A DNA stretch of 64,000 bases, from assembly GCA_016191115.1 (NCBI GenBank), contig JACPPG010000038.1:32907-96906 (forward strand), written 5' to 3'. The stretch is from Planctomycetia bacterium. GTDB lineage: Bacteria; Planctomycetota; Planctomycetia; Pirellulales; JACPPG01. Positions within the stretch are counted from its first letter, which is position 1. The number at the start of each line of letters is the position of its first letter. The position numbers were made by a program, and so were the translations under genes. This document shows positions 1,781-58,700 of this stretch, piece after piece. Under the pieces are notes generated by a model. That model saw only the letters and a list, made by a program, of their open reading frames with translations. It did no database searches and had not been told where the DNA came from.

Positions 1781-1860
1781 GGTCTCACCTCGATTCTTGC
1801 ATGCTGTCCCTTTAGCACGCATTCGCGTCATGTAGCAAAGGACTCACTGCGTGGCGTGCG

Positions 1861-2005
1861 GACGAATGTCTAATGTCTAAATTCAAATGTCTAAAGAAAT
1901 CCGAAATCCGAAGATCGAATGACGAAGAAAGGGCCCTTTGTTCCGCGTTTCGTCCTTCGGTCATTCGGATTTCTTTAGACAATTGGCTTTCGACATTCGT
2001 CATTC
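1861..2005. repeat. AT-rich word palindrome (GACGAATGTC family), putative terminator after spoVR
   Basis: gacgaatgtc (1861-1870) pairs with gacattcgtc (1992-2001). tctaaagaaatccgaa (1891-1906) pairs with ttcggatttctttaga (1964-1979). The centre is aaagggcccttt. About 35% GC in its first 60 nt against a mid-60s% background. Confidence 0.85.
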
Positions 2006-8072: not shown

Positions 8073-8200
8073 CAGGGCCGTTCACCGATTCAAGCTTGCC
8101 GGCGGCGCACCGGCGGGAAAGTGGGACAGGCACCGAGACGCAACGTTGGTCTGAAAGGACTTGCGCTGTTTATGCTCGGAGCCAGTCCCATTTTCCCGCC
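8073..8200 (+). mobile_element. 157-bp CAGGGCC MITE, copy A (3'-truncated)
   Basis: Begins CAGGGCCGTTCACCGATTCAAGCTTGCCGG. Matches the other copies up to CCCATTTTCCCGCC, then diverges. Confidence 0.85.
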
Positions 8201-9689: not shown

Positions 9690-10934
9690 TTGCTCCCCGT
9701 GAATCGCCCGGTCCAACTCGCCGACTCGCCCGCCGCCGCGCCGCGCGCGCGCCCGCCGCTGCCCGCGAACGTCAAGCTCTTGGGAGTGACGAGTCTGGTG
9801 AACGACATCGCCAGCGAGATGCTCTATCCGCTCTTGCCGGCACTTCTAACCACGCTCTTAGGCACCGGCTACCGCCAGATTGGCCTGGCCGTGGGCATCA
9901 TTGAAGGCGCGGCCGAGGCCGTCTCCAGTGTCTTGAAGCTGTTCGCCGGCGGATGGTCGGACCGCACCGGACGACGCAAGGGTTGGATCGTCGTCGGCTA
10001 CGCCGCGTCGGCCGTGGCCAAGCCGCTGATGGGACTAATTGTCTATCCCTGGCAACTGCTGGCCTGCCGCGTCGGCGATCGGCTGGGAAAGGGGCTGCGC
10101 ACCTCCGCCCGCGACGCCGTGATTGCCGAGTCGACGCCGCCGGCCATCCGCGGCTGGGCCTTTGGCTTCCACCGCGGCATGGATCACATCGGCGCGGCGA
10201 TCGGTCCGCTGCTGGCCACCGGCTTCCTGTACTTGTGGCCCGACCGGTTGCAGACCTTGTTCCTGCTCTCGGCGATTCCGGGCACCGCGGTCATCGCGAT
10301 CCTGGCATTCGGGCTGCGCGAGCCACCGCACAGCGTTTCGGCCGCCGAGCCCTTCGCATTGTCGCTCGCGCCCTTTGAGCGCAACTTCCGGCTGTACTTG
10401 CTGTCGCTCGCCGTGTTCACGCTGGGCAATTCGAGCGACCTGTTTTTGCTCGCGCGCTCCGGCGAGCTGGGCGTCCCGGAGATGATGCTGCCCGTGATGT
10501 GGTTCGCTTTCCACGTCGCCAAGAGCACAGGCAACATGCTAGTGGGGCGCGTTGTCGAACGCGTCGGCGCGCGGCGGCTGATCTTCGCCGGCTGGTTGGC
10601 CTACGCGGTAGTCTATCTGGGCTTTGCCTTGGCCGACCGCGCGTGGCACGCCTGGGCGCTATTTCTCTCGTATGCGATCTTCTATTCGCTGACTGAGCCG
10701 CCGGAGAAGACGATTGTCGCGCAACTGGTGCCCGGCAACCGTCGAGGGCTGGCGTACGGCTGGTACAACTTCGCGATCGGCGTCGCGGCCCTTCCGGCCA
10801 GCCTGCTCTTTGGATTTCTGTACAAAGACTACGGCGCGCTCGCGGCGTTCAGCACCGGCGCCGGACTGGCAGTCGTGGCGGCCGTGCTGTTGACCGCGGT
10901 AAGGACAGAGCCGCGTAGCGGCGAAATCGCGTAG
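9690..10934 (+). CDS. MFS transporter
   Basis: 414 aa, about 12 hydrophobic segments, DRTGRRKG-type loop after TM2. TTG start at 9690 (GTG 9699 is an alternative). Confidence 0.8.
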   Translation: MLPVNRPVQLADSPAAAPRARPPLPANVKLLGVTSLVNDIASEMLYPLLPALLTTLLGTGYRQIGLAVGIIEGAAEAVSSVLKLFAGGWSDRTGRRKGWIVVGYAASAVAKPLMGLIVYPWQLLACRVGDRLGKGLRTSARDAVIAESTPPAIRGWAFGFHRGMDHIGAAIGPLLATGFLYLWPDRLQTLFLLSAIPGTAVIAILAFGLREPPHSVSAAEPFALSLAPFERNFRLYLLSLAVFTLGNSSDLFLLARSGELGVPEMMLPVMWFAFHVAKSTGNMLVGRVVERVGARRLIFAGWLAYAVVYLGFALADRAWHAWALFLSYAIFYSLTEPPEKTIVAQLVPGNRRGLAYGWYNFAIGVAALPASLLFGFLYKDYGALAAFSTGAGLAVVAAVLLTAVRTEPRSGEIA

Positions 10935-10954
10935 CCGTGGGTGTAAACCCACGG
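10935..10954 (+). terminator. short stem-loop directly after MFS stop
   Basis: ccgtgggt-gtaa-acccacgg, an 8-bp stem with a 4-nt loop and no U tract. Confidence 0.4.
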
Positions 10955-11529: not shown

Positions 11530-11725
11530 GCGGGGAGCAGTGATCAGTAATCAGTGGTCAGAGGCTGGAGATCGGAGGCTGGAGGCTTGAGGAAGAACGC
11601 TGGCACGGTCCTGTCCCGCCTTTCCTTCAGCCTGAAGTCTGAATCCTCCGCAGTGGCGATTGTTGAATATTTGCCCATTTGAACGGTTCTCATCGCTCGA
11701 CTCCAGCGTGCACGATGAAAGAGTA

Positions 11726-11820
11726 GGTTTGTCCGTCCTGGGAAGGGAACCGCCAAGGCGCCAAGGACGCCAAGAGGGGGCCTCGATCGCGTAGAATGGT
11801 TAGCTATGAGCGAAGCGTCT
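11726..11820 (+). repeat. copy 1 of a 95-bp direct duplication (promoter-like TAGAAT + ATGAGCGAAGCGTCT)
   Basis: Near-identical to 11973..12068 (2 substitutions + 1 indel by eye). TAGAAT at 11792-11797, ATG at 11806. The following ORF stops after 29 codons. Confidence 0.85.
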
Positions 11821-11948
11821 CGTCGTATTCCACGCGAACGACATCGCATACATTCTTTACTGCGCAATGTGGGGATTTCGGTGACGTGCTCATGATGATC
11901 GAAGCAGTAACCCCCATTCGGCGCCGCCGACTCCAATTCGGTTCGCTT

Positions 11949-12023
11949 TCTTGGCGATCTTGGCGCCTTGGCGGTTTGTCCGTCCTGGGAAAGGGAACCG
12001 CCAAGGCGCCAAGGACGCCAAGA
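11949..12023. repeat. CCAAGGCGCCAAGG word palindrome
   Basis: tcttggcgatcttggcgccttggcgg pairs with ccgccaaggcgccaaggacgccaaga. Same family as 53973..54045. Confidence 0.8.
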
Positions 12024-12068
12024 GGGGGTCTCGATCGCGTAGAATGGTTAGCTATGAGCGAAGCGTCT
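11973..12068 (+). repeat. copy 2 of the 95-bp direct duplication
   Basis: See 11726..11820. TAGAAT at 12040-12045. The ATG at 12054 opens the 81-aa ORF. Confidence 0.85.
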
Positions 12069-15920: not shown

Positions 15921-16033
15921 CTAATATCGAAATTCAAATGTCTAATCTAATGAAGGACGAATGACCGAATGACGAAACGTTTCGGATTTCGTGCTTCGGA
16001 TTTCTTTAGACATTTGGATTTAGACATTAGACT
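15921..16033. repeat. AT-rich word palindrome (same family as 1861..2005) between two co-directional genes
   Basis: aaatgtctaa / ttagacattt arms with a cgaaacgtttcg centre. Followed at 16037-16064 by the CTCCGTG word run. Confidence 0.8.
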
Positions 16034-21134: not shown

Positions 21135-21273
21135 CAGGGCCATTCTGTTTTTCAAAATGGCGAGGCGGGAAAATGGGACTGGCTCCGAGCATAAACAGCG
21201 CAAGTCCTTTCAGACCAACGTTGCGTCTCGGTGCCTGTCCCACTTTCCCGCCGGTGCGCCGCCGGCAAGCTTG
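21135..21273 (-). mobile_element. 157-bp CAGGGCC MITE, copy C (truncated at the GTTCACAG end)
   Basis: The plus strand reads CAGGGCCATTCTGTTTTTCAAAATGGCGAGG ... GCCGGCAAGCTTG, then diverges. Confidence 0.85.
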
Positions 21274-23040: not shown

Positions 23041-23955
23041 TTGCAGATCCACGGGACGGAGATCGTCGACACGTTCGCGGAAGCGTTTCGCATGCGCTAC
23101 GCGCGACTCGTCGTGACGGCATACGACGAGCACTGGTTGGCGGCAGCGGTTGCCGCGTTCACCGGCTACGCGAGCAGCGTGATCGCCTGCGACGCCGAAG
23201 CCGCGGTCGAGCGACGGCTTGCCGGCCACGAGACGCCCGACGGTCGCGAGGGCGCGGCGATCCTGGTCTTTGCGCCGACCGCCGACGCGCTCGCCGCGGC
23301 CGTGCCCAATCGCACTGGCCAGTGCCTGATGACTTGCCCGACGACGGCCGTGTTCGACGGGCTCGCGGAGGGAGATGAGCGGATCCCCCTGGGGAAGCAC
23401 ATCCGTTTTTTCGGAGACGGCTTCCAGAAGAGCAAGCTGCTCCTGGGTCGCCGCTACTGGCGCGTCCCGGTCATGGACGGCGAGTTTTTGGTCGAGGAGT
23501 CGCTGGGCGTCGCCAAGGGCGTGGCCGGCGGGAACTTGATCGTTCAAGGCGAAAGCCTTGAGGTCGCGCTGGCCGCCTCGCGCCGCGCCGCGGAGTCGCT
23601 AGCCGAGCTTCCGGGCGTCATCACCCCCTTTCCCGGCGGCATCGCGCGAAGCGGCAGCAAAGTCGGCTCGCGGTACAAGAAGCTGCGGGCCTCGACGGCT
23701 GACGGATTCTGCCCGACCTTGCGCGGAAGGGTCGAGACCCGATTGCACGCGGGGGCCAATTGCGCCTACGAGCTGGTGATCGACGGCGTCGACGAGTCGA
23801 GTGTGGCCCGGGCGATGGCCGTCGCCGCGCGGGCCGCGGCCTCACCCGGGATCGTCGCCATCAGCGCCGGCAATTACGGAGGCAAACTCGGCAAGTTCCA
23901 CTTCCGCCTGCACGAGGTGCTGGCCGCCGAAGAGAACTCACCACGAAGCCACTGA
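23041..23955 (+). CDS. ftr: formylmethanofuran--tetrahydromethanopterin N-formyltransferase (Ftr/FhcD family)
   Basis: TTG start. MQIHGTEIVDTFAEAFRMRYARLVVTA closely resembles the canonical Ftr N-terminus. About 300 aa, as expected. Confidence 0.85.
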   Translation: MQIHGTEIVDTFAEAFRMRYARLVVTAYDEHWLAAAVAAFTGYASSVIACDAEAAVERRLAGHETPDGREGAAILVFAPTADALAAAVPNRTGQCLMTCPTTAVFDGLAEGDERIPLGKHIRFFGDGFQKSKLLLGRRYWRVPVMDGEFLVEESLGVAKGVAGGNLIVQGESLEVALAASRRAAESLAELPGVITPFPGGIARSGSKVGSRYKKLRASTADGFCPTLRGRVETRLHAGANCAYELVIDGVDESSVARAMAVAARAAASPGIVAISAGNYGGKLGKFHFRLHEVLAAEENSPRSH

Positions 23956-23959
23956 GGAG

Positions 23960-24096
23960 CGAAGAACGTCGAATGTCCAAATAAGAATGTCTAAAGAAAT
24001 CTGAAGGACGAAGCTCGCAAGGGCATCTCGTCATTCGTGCTTCGTTATTCTTTAGATTACACAGATTAGACATTAGTCCTTCGACATTCGTCATTC
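23960..24096. repeat. AT-rich word palindrome between convergent ftr and rarA
   Basis: cgtcgaatgtcc ... ccttcgacattcgtcattc with tgtctaaagaaatc words. The right arm contains the rarA stop codon (24091-24093). Confidence 0.8.
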
Positions 24097-27434: not shown

Positions 27435-27578
27435 CGGGCCGTTCACAGATTCAAGCTTGCCGGCGGCGCACCGGCGGGAAAGTGGGACAGGCACCGAGAC
27501 GCAGCGTTGGTATGAAAGGGCTTGCGCTGTTTGTGCTCGGAGCCAGTCCCATTTTCCCGCCTCGCCATTTTGAAAAAA
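27435..27578 (+). mobile_element. 157-bp CAGGGCC MITE, copy D (both termini degenerate)
   Basis: CGGGCCGTTCACAGATTCAAGCTTGCC ... CGCCATTTTGAAAAAAG. Shares the GCAGCG/GGTATG/TTTGTG variants with copy G. Confidence 0.85.
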
Positions 27579-29156: not shown

Positions 29157-29341
29157 GAATGACGAATGTCGAAGCTCGAATGTCAAAGAAGCACGAAATC
29201 CGAAGCGCGAAACTTCCTGTGATCAAGTATCTCAGATTTGGAATCCAGGTCCCAGAATCTCGGACCTGAGGATTCCGCACGATTTCGGATTTCGGGCTTT
29301 CGGTCATTCTTTTGACATTCGAGCTTCGACATTCGTCATTC
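29157..29341. repeat. AT-rich word palindrome (185 bp) between convergent genes
   Basis: gaatgacgaatgtcgaagctcgaatgtcaaa pairs perfectly (~31 bp) with tttgacattcgagcttcgacattcgtcattc. Inner cgaaatccgaa / ttcggatttcg pair. The right arm contains the stop codon at 29336. Confidence 0.9.
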
Positions 29342-50474: not shown

Positions 50475-52397
50475 CTAAGGGCGCGGCGCGCGGCGGCGCT
50501 GTTGCAACATCCAGGCCTCAAGCTGCGCGGCCAGTGACGCGTCCCCCTCCGATCGGGCCAGCTCCAGGGCCCTCTCGGCCGTGGCGATGGCTTCGGCGTC
50601 GCGCTGCGCCATCGCGTAGGCGAACGCCAGGTTGGCCAATGCGACGCCATCCGGCTTCAACGCAACCGCGCGTTCAAAATGCGCGATCGCGTCCTCGATT
50701 CGTCCGATGCTGGCCAAGGCGCTCCCGAGATTCATGTGCGCGTCGGCGAAGTCGGGCTCCAACTCCACGGCTCTTTGAAAATGGTCGATCCCTGCTCCGA
50801 TCCGGCCCGCCTGGGTCAAGGCGATTCCCAGGTTGTAGTGGGCGGCGGCGAAGTCGGGCTTGAGCCGCACGGCTTCCTGGTAGTGACCGAACGCCTCGCG
50901 CTGACGGCCCACTTCGTCGAGGGCCCGGGCCAGATTGAAGTGCGCATCGCTCGAGTCGGGCTTCCGCCGCAACGCCGCTTCGAATTGCTCGATCGCCTCC
51001 TGCTGCCGCCCGGCCACGGCCAGCAACGTCCCCGCGTTGTAGCACGCCATGAAGTTATCGGGCTGATGAACCGCCGCGTCGCGCCACAGGTCCAACTCGT
51101 CGTTGTACACGTTTGATCGGCGCAGGCTCAACAGACCAAAGACGGCGCCGACTACCACGACGCCGACTCCGGTCACGGCGATGGGTCCCCAGCCGGCAAG
51201 CCTCCGTTCCGTGCGCGCGTCGATCGATCGCGCGACGCGCTCCGCGAGTGCATAGCCTCCCGCGACCACCAGGGGAGCGATCGCGGCCAGTGGCAGGTAC
51301 ATCCGCCGCTCAGCGGCCACTTCGTTAGTCATCGGAATCAAGAACGTCGGCGACAAGACCATCAGCACGGAAGCACCGACAAACCCGGCCGCCGTGCGTC
51401 GCCAAACCAGCACGAGCGCGACCAGGCCCAGCGCTGCGGCGGCCAATAGCCACGGCCACGCGGCGGCCAACGTTTCGAAATAGGGCAATTCATATTGAAT
51501 CAGCAGCGGCCACGGCCAAAATGTCAGCTTGAGATACAAGATCAGGACTTTGGCTTGCGTCAACCACCAAGGAACGGCACGGACTGGGAGGCCGAAACCC
51601 GCTTCCGGGGTGTGGTGCCCGGAGAGGTAAATGCACAGCAGGGGAATCCACGCGGCGGCCAGGCCGAGATACAACGGCCAAGACGCCCGAAGAGCCCGGC
51701 GGAATGACCCGGTGATGAATGTCCGCTCGAACAACAACACCACGACCGGAGCCGACGCCATGACTTCCTTCGAGAGCATCCCCAACAGGCACGCCATCGT
51801 GGCCACCGAAAGCCACAGGGCCCGCCAGGCGGGCGCGGTTGCCGACCAGTACCGCAAGCTGGCAAAAAGCGTCAGCAGGTAGAACCAGCCCATCATCAGT
51901 TCCGTCCGCTGCGTTACATAATTAACGCTCTCCGTATTGACGGGATGCGCCGCCCAGACGAGCGCGGACGCGAACGATAAATACCCGGCGACGCGATCGA
52001 AGCGGTGCTGGAAATACCCCAGGCGCAGCGTCCGGTAGACAATCGCCCATAGCGTGCACGCCGCCAGCGCGTGCAGGATCATGTTGACGAGGTGGTAGCC
52101 CGTGGGGTCGAGCGCGCCGAAATAGTAATTGAGCGCCAGAGAGAGATTCACGACCGGGCGGGCCGAAGTGGGTATTCCCTTCGGCGGCGTAAGGGGACCG
52201 CCGCGATCCGACAAGTCGATGACAGGCCACACGCGACGGATCGACGGATTCTTCACCACGGTGTGCAAATCATCGAAGAAGAAAGGCGCGTGAACGGCCG
52301 TGCCGTAGATCGCGAGCACCACTCCGCCCAGGACTAGCGCGCCCACGAGTGCCGCCACCCGCGCGGACGCAGACCGTGGTGGCGGGTTCGTACCCAT
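50475..52397 (-). CDS. polytopic membrane protein with C-terminal TPR repeats (TMTC/PMT_2-like putative glycosyltransferase)
   Basis: About 11 TM helices, then at least 6 TPR units (AHYNLG.AL...G....AI..F..A). FFFDDLHTVVKNP N-terminal motif. Confidence 0.82.
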   Translation of the reverse strand: MGTNPPPRSASARVAALVGALVLGGVVLAIYGTAVHAPFFFDDLHTVVKNPSIRRVWPVIDLSDRGGPLTPPKGIPTSARPVVNLSLALNYYFGALDPTGYHLVNMILHALAACTLWAIVYRTLRLGYFQHRFDRVAGYLSFASALVWAAHPVNTESVNYVTQRTELMMGWFYLLTLFASLRYWSATAPAWRALWLSVATMACLLGMLSKEVMASAPVVVLLFERTFITGSFRRALRASWPLYLGLAAAWIPLLCIYLSGHHTPEAGFGLPVRAVPWWLTQAKVLILYLKLTFWPWPLLIQYELPYFETLAAAWPWLLAAAALGLVALVLVWRRTAAGFVGASVLMVLSPTFLIPMTNEVAAERRMYLPLAAIAPLVVAGGYALAERVARSIDARTERRLAGWGPIAVTGVGVVVVGAVFGLLSLRRSNVYNDELDLWRDAAVHQPDNFMACYNAGTLLAVAGRQQEAIEQFEAALRRKPDSSDAHFNLARALDEVGRQREAFGHYQEAVRLKPDFAAAHYNLGIALTQAGRIGAGIDHFQRAVELEPDFADAHMNLGSALASIGRIEDAIAHFERAVALKPDGVALANLAFAYAMAQRDAEAIATAERALELARSEGDASLAAQLEAWMLQQRRRAPRP

Positions 52398-52584: not shown

Positions 52585-53031
52585 CTAGTCGTTTGGCGGA
52601 TCAGGGCCATTCACCGATTCAAGCTTGCCGGCGGCGCACCGGCGGGAAAGTGGGACAGGCACCAAGACGCAGCGTTGGTATGAAAGGGCTTGCGCTGTTT
52701 GTGCTTGGAGCCAGTCCCATTTTCCCGCCTCGCCATTTTGAAAAACAGAATGGCCCTGGTTTGGCGGATCTAGGTAGTCGTCCAGCCTGGTCCTTTGCTT
52801 CTGGATCCGCTGGAGCATCTCGTGCGGGTGCTGAGCGTAATAGAGGCTCCGCGGCTTCTCGACATTCTCCTGGCTTGCGGCCAGTTGAGCCTCCAGCCGC
52901 TTTCGTTCGCGACGCTTCTTCGTCGCCAGCGTCAACGCCGCCGCCACTGCCACTAGCAACAACAACGTTCCCAGGCCGAATTGGAACCAGCGACGGCGCG
53001 GCGCCTGCTTGCCGATCTCATCTTCGGCCAT
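52585..53031 (-). CDS. small RWFQFGL-motif membrane protein whose 3' end reads through a MITE insertion
   Basis: MAEDEIGKQAPRRRWFQFGLGTLLLLVAVAA. Residues ~88-143 are encoded by MITE copy G plus one target duplication. The ORF ends at the original stop. Confidence 0.45.
   Translation of the reverse strand: MAEDEIGKQAPRRRWFQFGLGTLLLLVAVAAALTLATKKRRERKRLEAQLAASQENVEKPRSLYYAQHPHEMLQRIQKQRTRLDDYLDPPNQGHSVFQNGEAGKWDWLQAQTAQALSYQRCVLVPVPLSRRCAAGKLESVNGPDPPND
52602..52758 (+). mobile_element. 157-bp CAGGGCC MITE, copy G (intact, inside an ORF)
   Basis: CAGGGCCATTC ... GAATGGCCCTG. Flanked by a direct repeat GTTTGGCGGAT at 52591-52601 and 52759-52769. 10 mismatches to copy E. Confidence 0.92.
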
Positions 53032-53040
53032 GGTTCCGCG

Positions 53041-53868
53041 TTACGTCGTTTTCCCTCGGTACGCGTCCAGGAGCCGTCCCGGCGAGCCCATGATGTTGTA
53101 GCCGGCGTCGACGTGAAGAATTTCGCCGGTGATGCCGTCGCCCATGTCCGAAAGGAGGAAGCCGGCGGCGCGGCCCACCTCTTCGTGCGTGATATTGCGG
53201 CCCAGCGGGGCCATTCCCTCGTACAGGCCGAGCATGTCGTCGACGCCCGCCCCACGGCCGGCCAGCGTCCGCAGGGGGCCTGCGCTCACGGCGTTGACGC
53301 GGATGCCGCGCGGGCCGAGGTCGTAGGCCAGGTACTTGACGATCGAGTCGAGCGCCGCCTTGCACACGCCCATCACGTTGTAGCCCGGCACCGGCCGCTC
53401 GCCCCCGTAGTACGTCATCGTGACGATGCTCCCCTTGTCGGTCATGAACTCGCGGGCGGCATTGGCCACGGCGATCAGGCTATAGGCGCTAATCTCCATC
53501 GCCTCCTTGAATCCCTCGCGGCTGGTCTGGATGGTGTCGCCCTTGAGGTCATCGAGCCGCGCGTGAGCGATCGAGTGCACGACGAAGTCGATCTTGCCGA
53601 ATTCTTCCGCCGCGCGGCGCATCACGCTTTTGATGTCCTCGTCGTTCGTCACGTCCATAGGCACCAGGAACTTGGCGCCGGGCGCCGGGTCGGTCAGCAT
53701 GGCCACGCGGCGGCGGTTCCGCTGCCGCTCGTCGTCGGGCCGGTCCGGCAGGTGCGTAAAGCCGCACACCGCCCCCTCGGCCATCACGTACTGGGCGATC
53801 GCCCAGGCGATCGAGTGATCGTTGGCAACGCCCAGCACCAGCCCCTTTTTGCCGTCAAACAGACCCAT
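53041..53868 (-). CDS. fabI: enoyl-[acyl-carrier-protein] reductase (NADH)
   Basis: GKKGLVLGVANDHSIAWAIA, YGGERPVPGYNVMGVCKAALD (Tyr/Lys), SAGPLRTLA. Confidence 0.92.
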   Translation of the reverse strand: MGLFDGKKGLVLGVANDHSIAWAIAQYVMAEGAVCGFTHLPDRPDDERQRNRRRVAMLTDPAPGAKFLVPMDVTNDEDIKSVMRRAAEEFGKIDFVVHSIAHARLDDLKGDTIQTSREGFKEAMEISAYSLIAVANAAREFMTDKGSIVTMTYYGGERPVPGYNVMGVCKAALDSIVKYLAYDLGPRGIRVNAVSAGPLRTLAGRGAGVDDMLGLYEGMAPLGRNITHEEVGRAAGFLLSDMGDGITGEILHVDAGYNIMGSPGRLLDAYRGKTT

Positions 53869-53972: not shown

Positions 53973-54045
53973 CTTGGCGTTCTTGGCGCCTTGGCGGTTC
54001 CTCTTTGCAGGCGGAATGAACCGCCATGTCGCCAAGAACGCCAAG
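53973..54045. repeat. CCAAGGCGCCAAG word palindrome in the fabI / sigma-54-activator divergent spacer
   Basis: cttggcgttcttggcgccttggcggtt pairs with aaccgccatgtcgccaagaacgccaag (27-bp stem, 3 central mismatches). Confidence 0.8.
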
Positions 54046-54152
54046 AGGAAACGGAGGAGCACGCAACATAACGACTTGCGTCGGATCGCTCAACGTCCTT
54101 CGGCGGGACGAGTTGGGACCCGCCCAGTGGCGCGTATCTGATTCGCCTGATT

Positions 54153-57202: not shown

Positions 57203-58564
57203 ATGAACACCGCACGCGGTTGCCGGGGGCTGTCGGGGCGGGCGATTGGGCGGCGGGCCTTTTTGGAAACGACCGTGGCGGCCGGCGGGGCCGGGTTGAC
57301 GCTGCCGATGCTCCTCCAATCGCGCGCCGCGGCGCGCGAGTCCGGACAGGCGGCCCGCGAACCCGGTCAAACCGTGCGCGACACGGCGGTGATCCAGATT
57401 TGGCTCGGCGGCGGGCCGACGCATTTCGAAACCTACGACCCCAAGCCGCAAGCGCCAGCCGAATATCGCGGCCCGTTCGGCGCCATCTCCACGTGCCTTC
57501 CCGGCGTGCAAATCTGCGAGACGCTGCCGCGGCACGCGCAGATCCTCGACAAGGTCGCCATCCTGCGAAGCGTCTACCACAATAGCGCCGACCACGACGC
57601 CGGCATGTACTTCTGCACTACCGGCAAGAAGACGAAGTTCCAGCCCTCGACCGGTTCGTACACGGCGCGGATCCGCGGCGCGAACCAGCCCGGGCTGCCG
57701 GCCTACGTGCACCTGGGCTTTCAGCCGACGACGAACCTGGTGTTCGTGCCGAACTTCAAGGCGGAGTATCTGGGCGGCGGCTACGATCCGTTCTACATCA
57801 CCGACGATCCGGCCGAGGCCAGCTTCCAGGTGCCCAACCTGCGGTTGGCCGACGGCGTGACGATCGACCGGCTGGGGGACCGCCGGTCGCTGCTTGGGCA
57901 CTTCGATCGCTTGCGCCGGCAGGCGGATCGCAGCGGGGCGATGGGCTCGATGGACCAGTTCGGCCGCGCGGCCTTCGACATGGTCACCGGCGCCGCCGCG
58001 CGGGAGGCCTTTGACCTGTCGCGCGAAGACCCGAAGACCCGCGAGCGATACGGCATGCACCGCTGGGGGCAGAGCTGCCTGTTGGCCCGGCGGCTGGTCG
58101 AGTCGGGCGTGACGTTCGTCACCGTGAATTTCGACCCGCACTCGTTCTCGTTCGACATGCACGCCAACGTCGAGCGGGGGATGCGCAGCGCCGGGCCGCG
58201 GATGGATTCGGCGATTCCGGCCCTGGTCGAGGACCTGCACGAGCGGGGCCTGGCCGACCGGGTGATGGTGATCGCCTGGGGCGAGTTCGGCCGCACGCCC
58301 CGCGTCAACCCCGCGGGCGGCCGCGACCACTGGGGCGAGGTGATGAGCGTGCTGGTGGCGGGCGGGGGCCTGCGCGTCGGCCAGGTGATTGGCTCGTCCA
58401 CGCCGAAGGGCGAGGTGCCCAAGGACCGGCCGATCATCCCCTACGACGTGCTGGCCACGATGTACCGGCACCTGGGGATCGACCCGTATACGACGTTCAC
58501 GGACCACGCCGGCCGGCCGACGCCCTTGCTGAACGAGGGGACGGTGATCGGCGAGTTGGTGTGA
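57203..58564 (+). CDS. DUF1501 domain-containing protein (Tat signal)
   Basis: AGGAG 8 nt upstream of ATG 57203. GRRAFLETTVAAGGAGL twin-arginine leader. GGRDHWGEVMSVLVAGGG. Confidence 0.9.
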   Translation: MNTARGCRGLSGRAIGRRAFLETTVAAGGAGLTLPMLLQSRAAARESGQAAREPGQTVRDTAVIQIWLGGGPTHFETYDPKPQAPAEYRGPFGAISTCLPGVQICETLPRHAQILDKVAILRSVYHNSADHDAGMYFCTTGKKTKFQPSTGSYTARIRGANQPGLPAYVHLGFQPTTNLVFVPNFKAEYLGGGYDPFYITDDPAEASFQVPNLRLADGVTIDRLGDRRSLLGHFDRLRRQADRSGAMGSMDQFGRAAFDMVTGAAAREAFDLSREDPKTRERYGMHRWGQSCLLARRLVESGVTFVTVNFDPHSFSFDMHANVERGMRSAGPRMDSAIPALVEDLHERGLADRVMVIAWGEFGRTPRVNPAGGRDHWGEVMSVLVAGGGLRVGQVIGSSTPKGEVPKDRPIIPYDVLATMYRHLGIDPYTTFTDHAGRPTPLLNEGTVIGELV

Positions 58565-58569
58565 CGTAC

Positions 58570-58700
58570 AATGACGAATGTCGAAATTTGAGTGTCTAAA
58601 GAAATCCGAATGACGAAAAGCTGAATGTCCGAAAGGAACGCGATCATTCGTCCTTCGGGCATTCGGCTTTCGTCATTCTTTCGACATTCGTGCTTCGTCC
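58570..58700. repeat. AT-rich word palindrome between convergent genes
   Basis: aatgacgaatgtcgaaa ... tttcgacattcgtgctt, with tgtctaaagaaatccgaatgacg words. The CTCCGTG word run follows at 58755-58782. Confidence 0.8.

Follow-up and report, generated by a model that had tools for sequence, protein, structure and literature searches.

An open reading frame of 148 codons on the minus strand of the window (the whole stretch of 64,000 nucleotides analysed here, C60:32907-96906 of a planctomycete assembly) ends in sequence supplied by a MITE, raising the question of whether a transposon has been recruited into a bacterial protein or has simply come to rest against a stop codon. The explanation put forward here, to which a probability of roughly 72% can be attached, is that an ISAs1-type MITE inserted recently, and to nearly neutral effect, close to the stop of a real small gene, with the tail of the protein being an accident of arithmetic. 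The features on which the argument depends are these, in window coordinates.

50475..52397, minus strand: membrane and TPR protein from a large set of paralogues, starting 187 nt past the stop of the small ORF
52585..53031, minus strand: present-day ORF, 148 aa, made up of the native part, the MITE-derived tail and then the original last codon GAC and stop TAG
52591..52601: target-site duplication GTTTGGCGGAT, stop-proximal copy, 11 bp, encoding the second DPPN
52602..52758, plus strand: MITE copy ("copy G"), 157 bp, supplying codons 92-143 and one base
52602..52612: left terminal inverted repeat CAGGGCCATTC, complementary to the right repeat at 11/11 positions
52641..52729: inner inverted repeat of 26 nt, the hairpin core, with arms at 52641-52666 and 52704-52729
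52748..52758: right terminal inverted repeat GAATGGCCCTG, complementary to the left repeat at 11/11 positions (100%)
52759..52769: target-site duplication GTTTGGCGGAT, gene-proximal copy, 11 bp, encoding the first DPPN
52759..53031, minus strand: native codons 1-91 (MAEDEIGKQAPRRRWFQFGLGTLLLL...LDDYLDPPN), with an Arg-rich motif at the N-terminus, a single predicted membrane helix and a helical stretch
53041..53868, minus strand: fabI (enoyl-ACP reductase; Pfam adh_short_C2, E 5e-78)

The direct repeat GTTTGGCGGAT(C) is found at 52591-52602 and again at 52759-52770 with a start-to-start spacing of 168 nt. Read in the orientation of the gene the layout is ...CTA G / ATCCGCCAAAC / element / ATCCGCCAAAC / GAC TAG, and the protein reads ...DDYLDPPN / QGHSVFQNGEAGKWDW...ESVNGP / DPPND-stop; GHSVFQNGEAGK is an example peptide of the predicted tail. 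The MITE entered at codon phase 0 about one codon (4 nt) from the stop, leaving 91 of the 92 native residues intact, and because element and duplication together come to 168 nt (157 + 11) the frame returns to the original GAC-TAG and the predicted product grows from 92 to 148 aa. Excision in silico of these 168 nt, the element and one repeat, gives a 92-aa ORF ending ...LDDYLDPPND (KQRTRLDDYLDPPND, then the stop), in which ...CTAGATCCGCCAAAC is joined to GACTAGGCTTTG. The original prediction had claimed both that a MITE with a duplicated target lies in the ORF and that the ORF gains 56 codons while keeping its stop; the former is borne out by the perfect 11-bp repeats, the inverted ends matching at 11/11 positions and 478 matches to the element in the assembly, the latter by the spacing and by the restored 92-aa ORF ending DPPND. 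No empty-site allele was found among the genomes searched, such that the pre-insertion state of the small gene is a reconstruction.

Whether the element entered a gene at all turns on the native part, which has the character of coding sequence. Scored against a codon-usage log-odds table trained on 1,100 long high-GC3 ORFs, the native 90 codons reach +0.367 per codon. None of the other five frames scores as high, and the 640-aa TPR gene next door has the same value. GC content at positions 1/2/3 of the native codons is 0.68/0.40/0.78. The score of +0.367 was reached by 0.33% of 3,891 decoys (ORFs of 80-110 codons taken from the wrong frames of confident genes), and 16% of true 90-codon gene windows lie at or below it. 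A codon-usage gene caller accepts the present-day 148-aa ORF at a score of 24.9; this is a crude caller of our own, the calls of which are not a validated annotation, and no genic insertion site has a lower gene score than this ORF. A 209-aa ORF on the opposite strand was considered as a real gene and ruled out by its codon score of -0.28 per codon.

Sequence comparison places the native part in a family of small single-pass proteins. The N-terminus PRRRWFQFGLGTLLLLV... is common to about 25 ORFs of this genome, with the same motif present in 67-102-aa ORFs of genus relatives. A phmmer search with residues 1-90 against 1.84 billion representatives returned 26 proteins at E <= 1e-3, most of them 64-132 aa long and aligning over much of the native part with a conserved RRRWFQFxLGT, membrane helix and EHxERxRLE; the closest, of 97 aa, is 46% identical over residues 12-77. 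The family motif is a PRRRWFQFxLGT N-terminus on single-pass proteins of 64-132 aa, a size range that fits the 92-aa reconstruction and not the 148-aa product. A single-sequence AlphaFold model makes residues 12-87 helical, at block-mean pLDDT values of 61-93. Other searches were less productive: a word-indexed search of 5.8 billion proteins matched only the protein itself, scans of genome and metagenome contigs gave nothing or just a 28-residue motif match, and the contigs of the phmmer homologues carried no fabI, these homologues not being syntenic.

The surroundings of the ORF suggest a probable operon. The stop of fabI lies 9 nt upstream of the ATG of the small ORF, a gap from which it follows that the two are probably co-transcribed. 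No terminator was predicted between the small ORF and the next gene, and the MITE therefore lies within a probable operon transcript. The five genus genomes have FabI orthologues with 80-83% identity to the protein of the window, followed by different neighbours (cysC-like, fabH-like), while the TPR protein has 13-23 paralogues per related genome at identities of up to about 50%. With the neighbours of fabI differing and the TPR protein being one of many paralogues, no positional orthologue of the small ORF and no empty site was found in the five genus genomes or in the protein and contig collections.

It is on this evidence that an alternative must be judged that denies the small ORF the status of a functional gene: the MITE would lie between genes in the fabI-TPR spacer, as do 90% of its relatives elsewhere, and annotating a 65% GC genome would have produced a spurious 148-aa protein. 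The absence of an orthologue from all collections searched, the other genes that follow fabI in genus relatives, the long ORF on the opposite strand, the lowest gene score among genic insertion sites and the lack of any match to the small ORF in Pfam or NCBIfam would all be in keeping with this. It is nevertheless unlikely given that the native 90 codons score as well as the TPR gene in their best frame at a level seen in so few decoys, that the PRRRWFQFxLGT...EHxERxRLE N-terminus recurs in small proteins of other metagenomes and genomes and that the ATG follows so closely on the fabI stop. Codon score, decoy calibration, position after fabI and the family of small homologues together suggest that the small ORF is probably a real gene, encoding what would be a lineage-restricted small membrane protein.

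The element itself is a MITE, a non-autonomous transposon with terminal inverted repeats, being small with inverted ends, flanked by duplications that vary and present in many dispersed copies. The 478 blastn matches in the 6.03-Mb assembly (93 contigs, 65% GC) include 260 of full length, and nine copies lie within the window. An exact flanking duplication was detectable in 188 of the 259 full-length copies analysed, with the duplicated sequence varying between copies. The commonest duplication is 10 bp, giving an inserted length of 167 nt (157 + 10) in 124 of the 188, which is not a multiple of three, and the 168-nt length that is a multiple of three occurs in 30 (16%). The family is young, the median divergence of its copies from the consensus being 4 differences over the 157 nt. 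Its terminal ends, CAGGGCC, are conserved across 206 aligned copies, and the consensus translated in six frames gives short products, none related to any transposase. The copy at 52602-52758 folds as one long hairpin with a dG of -78 kcal/mol (z -6.4), and 0 of 200 shuffles fold as well. The host genome, that of a planctomycete, contains 45 DUF1559 matches.

Beyond this genome the MITE was not found in five other genomes of the genus nor in 35 further genomes of the order, save for weak similarity in one. A search for exact matches to the first 23 nt of the consensus across 185,579 species genomes, among which the genome of the window is perhaps absent, gave no locus among the matches listed, and no Rfam family matches the element. 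Two candidate relationships were rejected: repeats in a genome from another family of the same order (G040) show weak core similarity with an alignment that shares short stem fragments alone, and an Rfam match to mir-448 fell far below threshold and was put down to chance.

ISAs1-family insertion sequences are the candidate source of the transposase. ISArsp11 of this family has the inverted repeat CAGGGCTGATGC... and a 10-bp direct repeat (PMC6305408), thus sharing with the MITE the CAGGG start of its ends and the modal duplication of 10 bp. An ISAs1-family element with CAGGGGTATCG ends is present at locus L039 in a genome of the same order, and a 48-aa remnant of an ISAs1 transposase lies at C87:12049-12192 in the window's own genome with no ends nearby. 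On the strength of the CAGGG ends, the 10-bp duplication as in ISArsp11, the element at L039 and the remnant, a transposase of the ISAs1 family most likely moved the MITE in trans. The inverted repeats of ISAs1 elements in related genomes differ from those of the MITE beyond CAGGG, and the MITE differs from such elements in being 157 bp long without a transposase and in that no autonomous element with matching repeats was found in the assembly. The same assembly, a 94%-complete draft in which an absence proves little, gave no match to the PF01609 transposase and no orphan inverted-repeat pairs of an autonomous partner. As it offers the remnant alone, the ISAs1 assignment is one that we infer and the partnership is putative.

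A repeat this abundant could be misplaced by an assembler, and the family does break the assembly with many contigs ending in about 139-141 nt of the element. An assembly artefact at this site can nonetheless be set aside with little hesitation: perfect 11-bp duplications flank the copy, its four private substitutions are spread along its length with the nearest other copy differing at 5 sites, and the flanks run without interruption into unique genes on either side.

The placement of the other copies shows how strongly the family is excluded from genes. With 4,445 gene calls from the codon-usage caller covering 82% of the sequence as coding, 424 of 473 copies (90%) are wholly intergenic, where 9% would be expected at random, and 0/473 lie deep within a gene. 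Excision in silico of the 188 copies with duplications placed 180 sites between genes and 8 in genes, all eight no more than 40 nt from a gene end. For five of the six genic sites at 3' ends the stop codon is inside the duplication and the protein is unchanged; one genic insertion changes three residues. No other duplicated full-length copy alters a predicted protein to a greater extent than this; the present one, which adds a substantial tail, is alone in doing so, and for that reason special tolerance or weak selection at this site is possible. No sequence motif was found in the duplicated bases at the target sites of the copies, making purifying selection the most likely cause of the intergenic bias; a weak symmetric A/T preference lies about 9-10 nt outside the duplication.

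MITE-coded C-termini are a recurrent minor by-product in this genome, with no frame preference beyond the positions of stops. About 20 further gene calls end in a copy or just past one, including calls of 1,280, 826, 807 and 628 aa and among them histidine-kinase-like and >1,000-aa proteins. The copies to which these tailed calls are joined have mostly lost about 18 nt from one end, and copies that look truncated at one end number roughly 125 in the assembly. Genes with a MITE-coded tail that also score highly number 14. An in-frame bias among the other genic copies, which the original prediction had proposed looking for, was not seen.

That prediction also held that the element has no stop in the frame used, which is true of this copy but not of the family, the consensus of which carries a TAA there: the TAA is present in 173 of 206 copies and the frame is open in 33. 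The copy belongs to a subfamily of 17 in which element position 100 is G, not A, differing from the family consensus at 8 positions and from the subfamily consensus at 4. As the consensus of the subfamily has no stop in this frame, none had to be lost in this copy; copies without the consensus TAA in the frame entered make up roughly 8-16%. Relative to the subfamily consensus the four private substitutions are two synonymous and two non-synonymous in the frame of the ORF. At private positions 63 and 105 (window 52664 and 52706) a G-C pair of the inner stem has become A-T in compensatory fashion, the combination of 63A with 105T being found in this copy alone, which hints that any constraint acts on the hairpin rather than on the peptide.

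Chance is sufficient to account for the in-frame read-through, which needs no selection. When each full-length genomic copy was placed at this site in both orientations, 35% of the simulated insertions with an 11-bp duplication and 3.3% of those with a 10-bp duplication re-used the original stop. The median product was 117-135 aa, indicating that almost any insertion at this site yields a long tail. In the frame used the tail has a GC3 of 0.55, as against 0.78 in the native part, and scores -0.20 per codon. Residues 91-141 have pLDDT values below 50 and no secondary structure in the single-sequence AlphaFold prediction, weak evidence that the tail would be unstructured or disordered. With an inherited open frame, a 35% frequency in simulation and a tail that is non-coding in its codon statistics, the read-through carries no particular meaning.

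These results bear on the proposal that the 56-aa tail is translated and has gained a function, with the stop-free frame kept by selection. There are grounds for entertaining it, as this is the sole intact duplicated copy to continue past a gene end and come back into frame, its inserted length falls in the 16% class divisible by three and its frame is open. Yet the open frame was inherited from the subfamily consensus, a third or so of simulated 11-bp-duplication insertions do the same, codon usage in the tail is non-coding with disorder predicted, and of the private changes it is the two non-synonymous ones that restore a stem pair and not any feature of the peptide. Moreover an insertion out of frame would likewise just add a tail, leaving nothing for selection to prefer. 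Functional recruitment is consequently very improbable. The wider notion that the tail is translated and retained as useful, and that the MITE family generates new C-termini of which some become functional, would similarly be a long shot. The claim of a rare bacterial case of a recruited MITE thus finds no backing in the codon usage and predicted disorder of the tail, the simulated frequency or the roughly 20 other tailed calls, and the claim of rarity sits badly with a literature in which in-frame fusions are "not unusual" (PMC10969869; PMC5896051). The alternative offered alongside it is to be preferred, namely that the element inserted recently into a gene that tolerates it or is dispensable. 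As part of that explanation the tail is probably an accidental by-product that is not codon-adapted.

A further possibility concerns the transcript rather than the protein. The hairpin in the mRNA might be cleaved, for example by RNase III, or might stall ribosomes, in which case little 148-aa protein would be made and expression of the TPR gene would perhaps be altered. The fold is of a stability that no shuffled sequence attained, the element is inside a probable operon transcript with no terminator predicted before the next gene, and a like scenario has been proposed for the QMITE2-extended enhC mRNA of Coxiella (PMC5896051). Ribosomes in translation however normally unwind such structures and sequence alone does not tell this outcome from simple neutrality. 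Damage to the transcript, or its regulation, through the hairpin is improbable as the main account of the locus.

Comparison with known systems indicates that this is the same kind of event as the C-terminal MITE tails already described. A 2024 review regards intragenic in-frame fusions of MITEs as "not unusual", with examples from Rickettsia RPEs, ERIC, QMITE1 and Anabaena MITEs (PMC10969869). The closest likeness is to Coxiella burnetii, in which many genes have a QMITE copy across their 3' end and EnhC of strain Dugway owes its final 33 aa to a QMITE2 (PMC5896051). Shared with QMITE1 and QMITE2 are an in-frame position at the extreme 3' end of a gene, an element-coded C-terminus with a stop just downstream, a stable mRNA hairpin, a mostly intergenic distribution and overlaps mainly at 3' ends. 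EnhC is by contrast conserved and characterised with strain comparison available, whereas the host here is small, orphan-like and with no orthologue found; its tail is 56 aa rather than 33 aa, and here the original stop is re-used by way of 168 nt.

RPEs have been described, as far as summarised in the review, as palindromic repeats of about 150 bp read in frame within proteins (Ogata et al. 2000, 2002, via PMC10969869). The MITE resembles them in being a palindromic repeat of about 150 bp translated in frame as part of a protein, which in the present case is predicted from sequence. RPEs however recur inside many conserved genes, each encoding a conserved peptide, while here no copy lies deep in a gene (0/473), TAA closes the frame used in most copies and the insertion lies a single codon before the stop. 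A search for repeated insertion into conserved genes, as RPEs show, found none (0/473 copies; TAA in 173/206). Correia elements of Neisseria and enterobacterial ERIC elements, reviewed elsewhere (PMC3184786; PMC10969869), are likewise abundant, hairpin-forming, mostly intergenic, co-transcribed with neighbours and occasionally fused to ORFs. They differ in having other ends, other duplications and hosts of another phylum. Correia elements, for instance, duplicate TA. What is new is the phylum and the family of element for a known kind of event, and the event is not RPE-like.

Under the preferred explanation of a recent and nearly neutral insertion, a non-autonomous DDE-type MITE with CAGGG ends would have inserted into the last codons of a small membrane-protein gene downstream of fabI, a staggered cut of 10-11 bp duplicating the 11 nt that encode D-P-P-N. 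The 157 + 11 nt would have restored the frame and, the copy being one without the consensus TAA, the original stop would have been re-used. The insertion would then have persisted because the gene tolerates a C-terminal appendage or is dispensable, its neutrality being presumed, with insertions deeper within genes being purged.

The locus provides a clean and reconstructible example in which target duplication, element length and a subfamily-specific base jointly set the outcome, and the family to which the copy belongs shows the strong exclusion of such elements from coding sequence with overlaps tolerated at the 3' ends of genes only. The main relevance is to annotation, since the tail of the 148-aa product is probably artefactual, as are about 20 further C-termini of this genome. 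For the birth of C-terminal sequence de novo it is a minor data point that opens no new question.

The target-site preference of the MITE was analysed genome-wide in the empty-site flanks of 100 copies, in which no motif was found within the 10 duplicated bases and a symmetric bias lay outside the duplication, with A at -10/-9 and T at +9/+10. An A/T bias of this kind is typically left by a transposase dimer that bends its target. At 12049-12192 of contig C87 of the source assembly lies a 48-aa ISAs1-family transposase remnant (NF033564, 69 bits, slightly below the cut-off), with no recognisable element ends near it, which is the sole trace there of a possible mobilising enzyme.

Approximately 125 of the ~473 copies genome-wide are missing 17-21 nt from one end only, with the break point at a small inner stem, TTCAA/TTGAA. 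Neither a target duplication nor a common sequence past the break point was found for these ~125 copies, and coding sequence adjoins 29% of truncated ends vs 6% of intact ends. While copies of ~140 nt at contig ends are consistent with a k=141 assembler, the internal truncated copies do not fit this effect. Examples, the last two also being gene calls with MITE-coded C-termini, are:

Window 21135-21273, truncated copy
Window 8073-8200, truncated copy
Window 27436-27577, truncated copy
C77:2506-2644, truncated copy and C-terminus of a gene call
C92:37251-37391, truncated copy and C-terminus of a gene call

In the copy within the small ORF, G>A and C>T substitutions at element positions 63 and 105 (52664 and 52706 of the window) replace an inner-stem G-C pair with A-T. 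This combination is absent from every other full-length copy and is compatible either with a hairpin under constraint or with repair templated inside the palindrome.

The window holds other repeats. Families D5 and D6 form a second dispersed family, AT-richer and unrelated to the MITE, with motifs including TTCGGATTTCTTTAGACA and GAATGTCTAAA:

Window 1852-2001, 15980-16032, 23952-24012, 29285-29337 and 58557-58699, D5/D6 dispersed repeat

A further repeat (families D4 and D7) is made of GGCGCCAAGG / CTTGGCG words at 11702-12068, as two copies 248 nt apart, and at 53973-54048, as an additional copy, 80% identical, upstream of fabI between this gene and the sigma-54 activator. The Rfam Acido-Lenti-1 RNA (RF01687) matches at 10909-10954 (minus strand; 45.2 bits vs a gathering score of 37).

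Genome-wide, ~25 ORFs have in common the N-terminal motif PRRRWFQFGLGT and, after it, a membrane helix, whereas their C-terminal parts are unrelated; several of these ORFs are clustered on contigs C64 and C72:

C8:25254-25424, motif ORF
C55:8772-8840, motif ORF
C47:187654-187716, motif ORF
C64:29949-32783, motif ORF

No Pfam or NCBIfam model covers this N-terminal anchor module, which is typical of the lineage.

MITE sequence also encodes the C-termini of ~20 other gene calls in the assembly, 14 of them high-scoring and the longest 1,280 aa, with the tails ...AAHRRESGTGTETQRWSERTCAVYARSQSHFPASPF*, ...QNGEAGKWDWLRA* and ...QACRRRTGGKVGQAPRR... recurring. Further examples from among these calls are:

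C26:59169-59321, MITE-coded C-terminus
C86:160869-161023, MITE-coded C-terminus
C92:131870-132051, MITE-coded C-terminus
C83:188497-188634, MITE-coded C-terminus

Annotation is likely to be misled by such tails.
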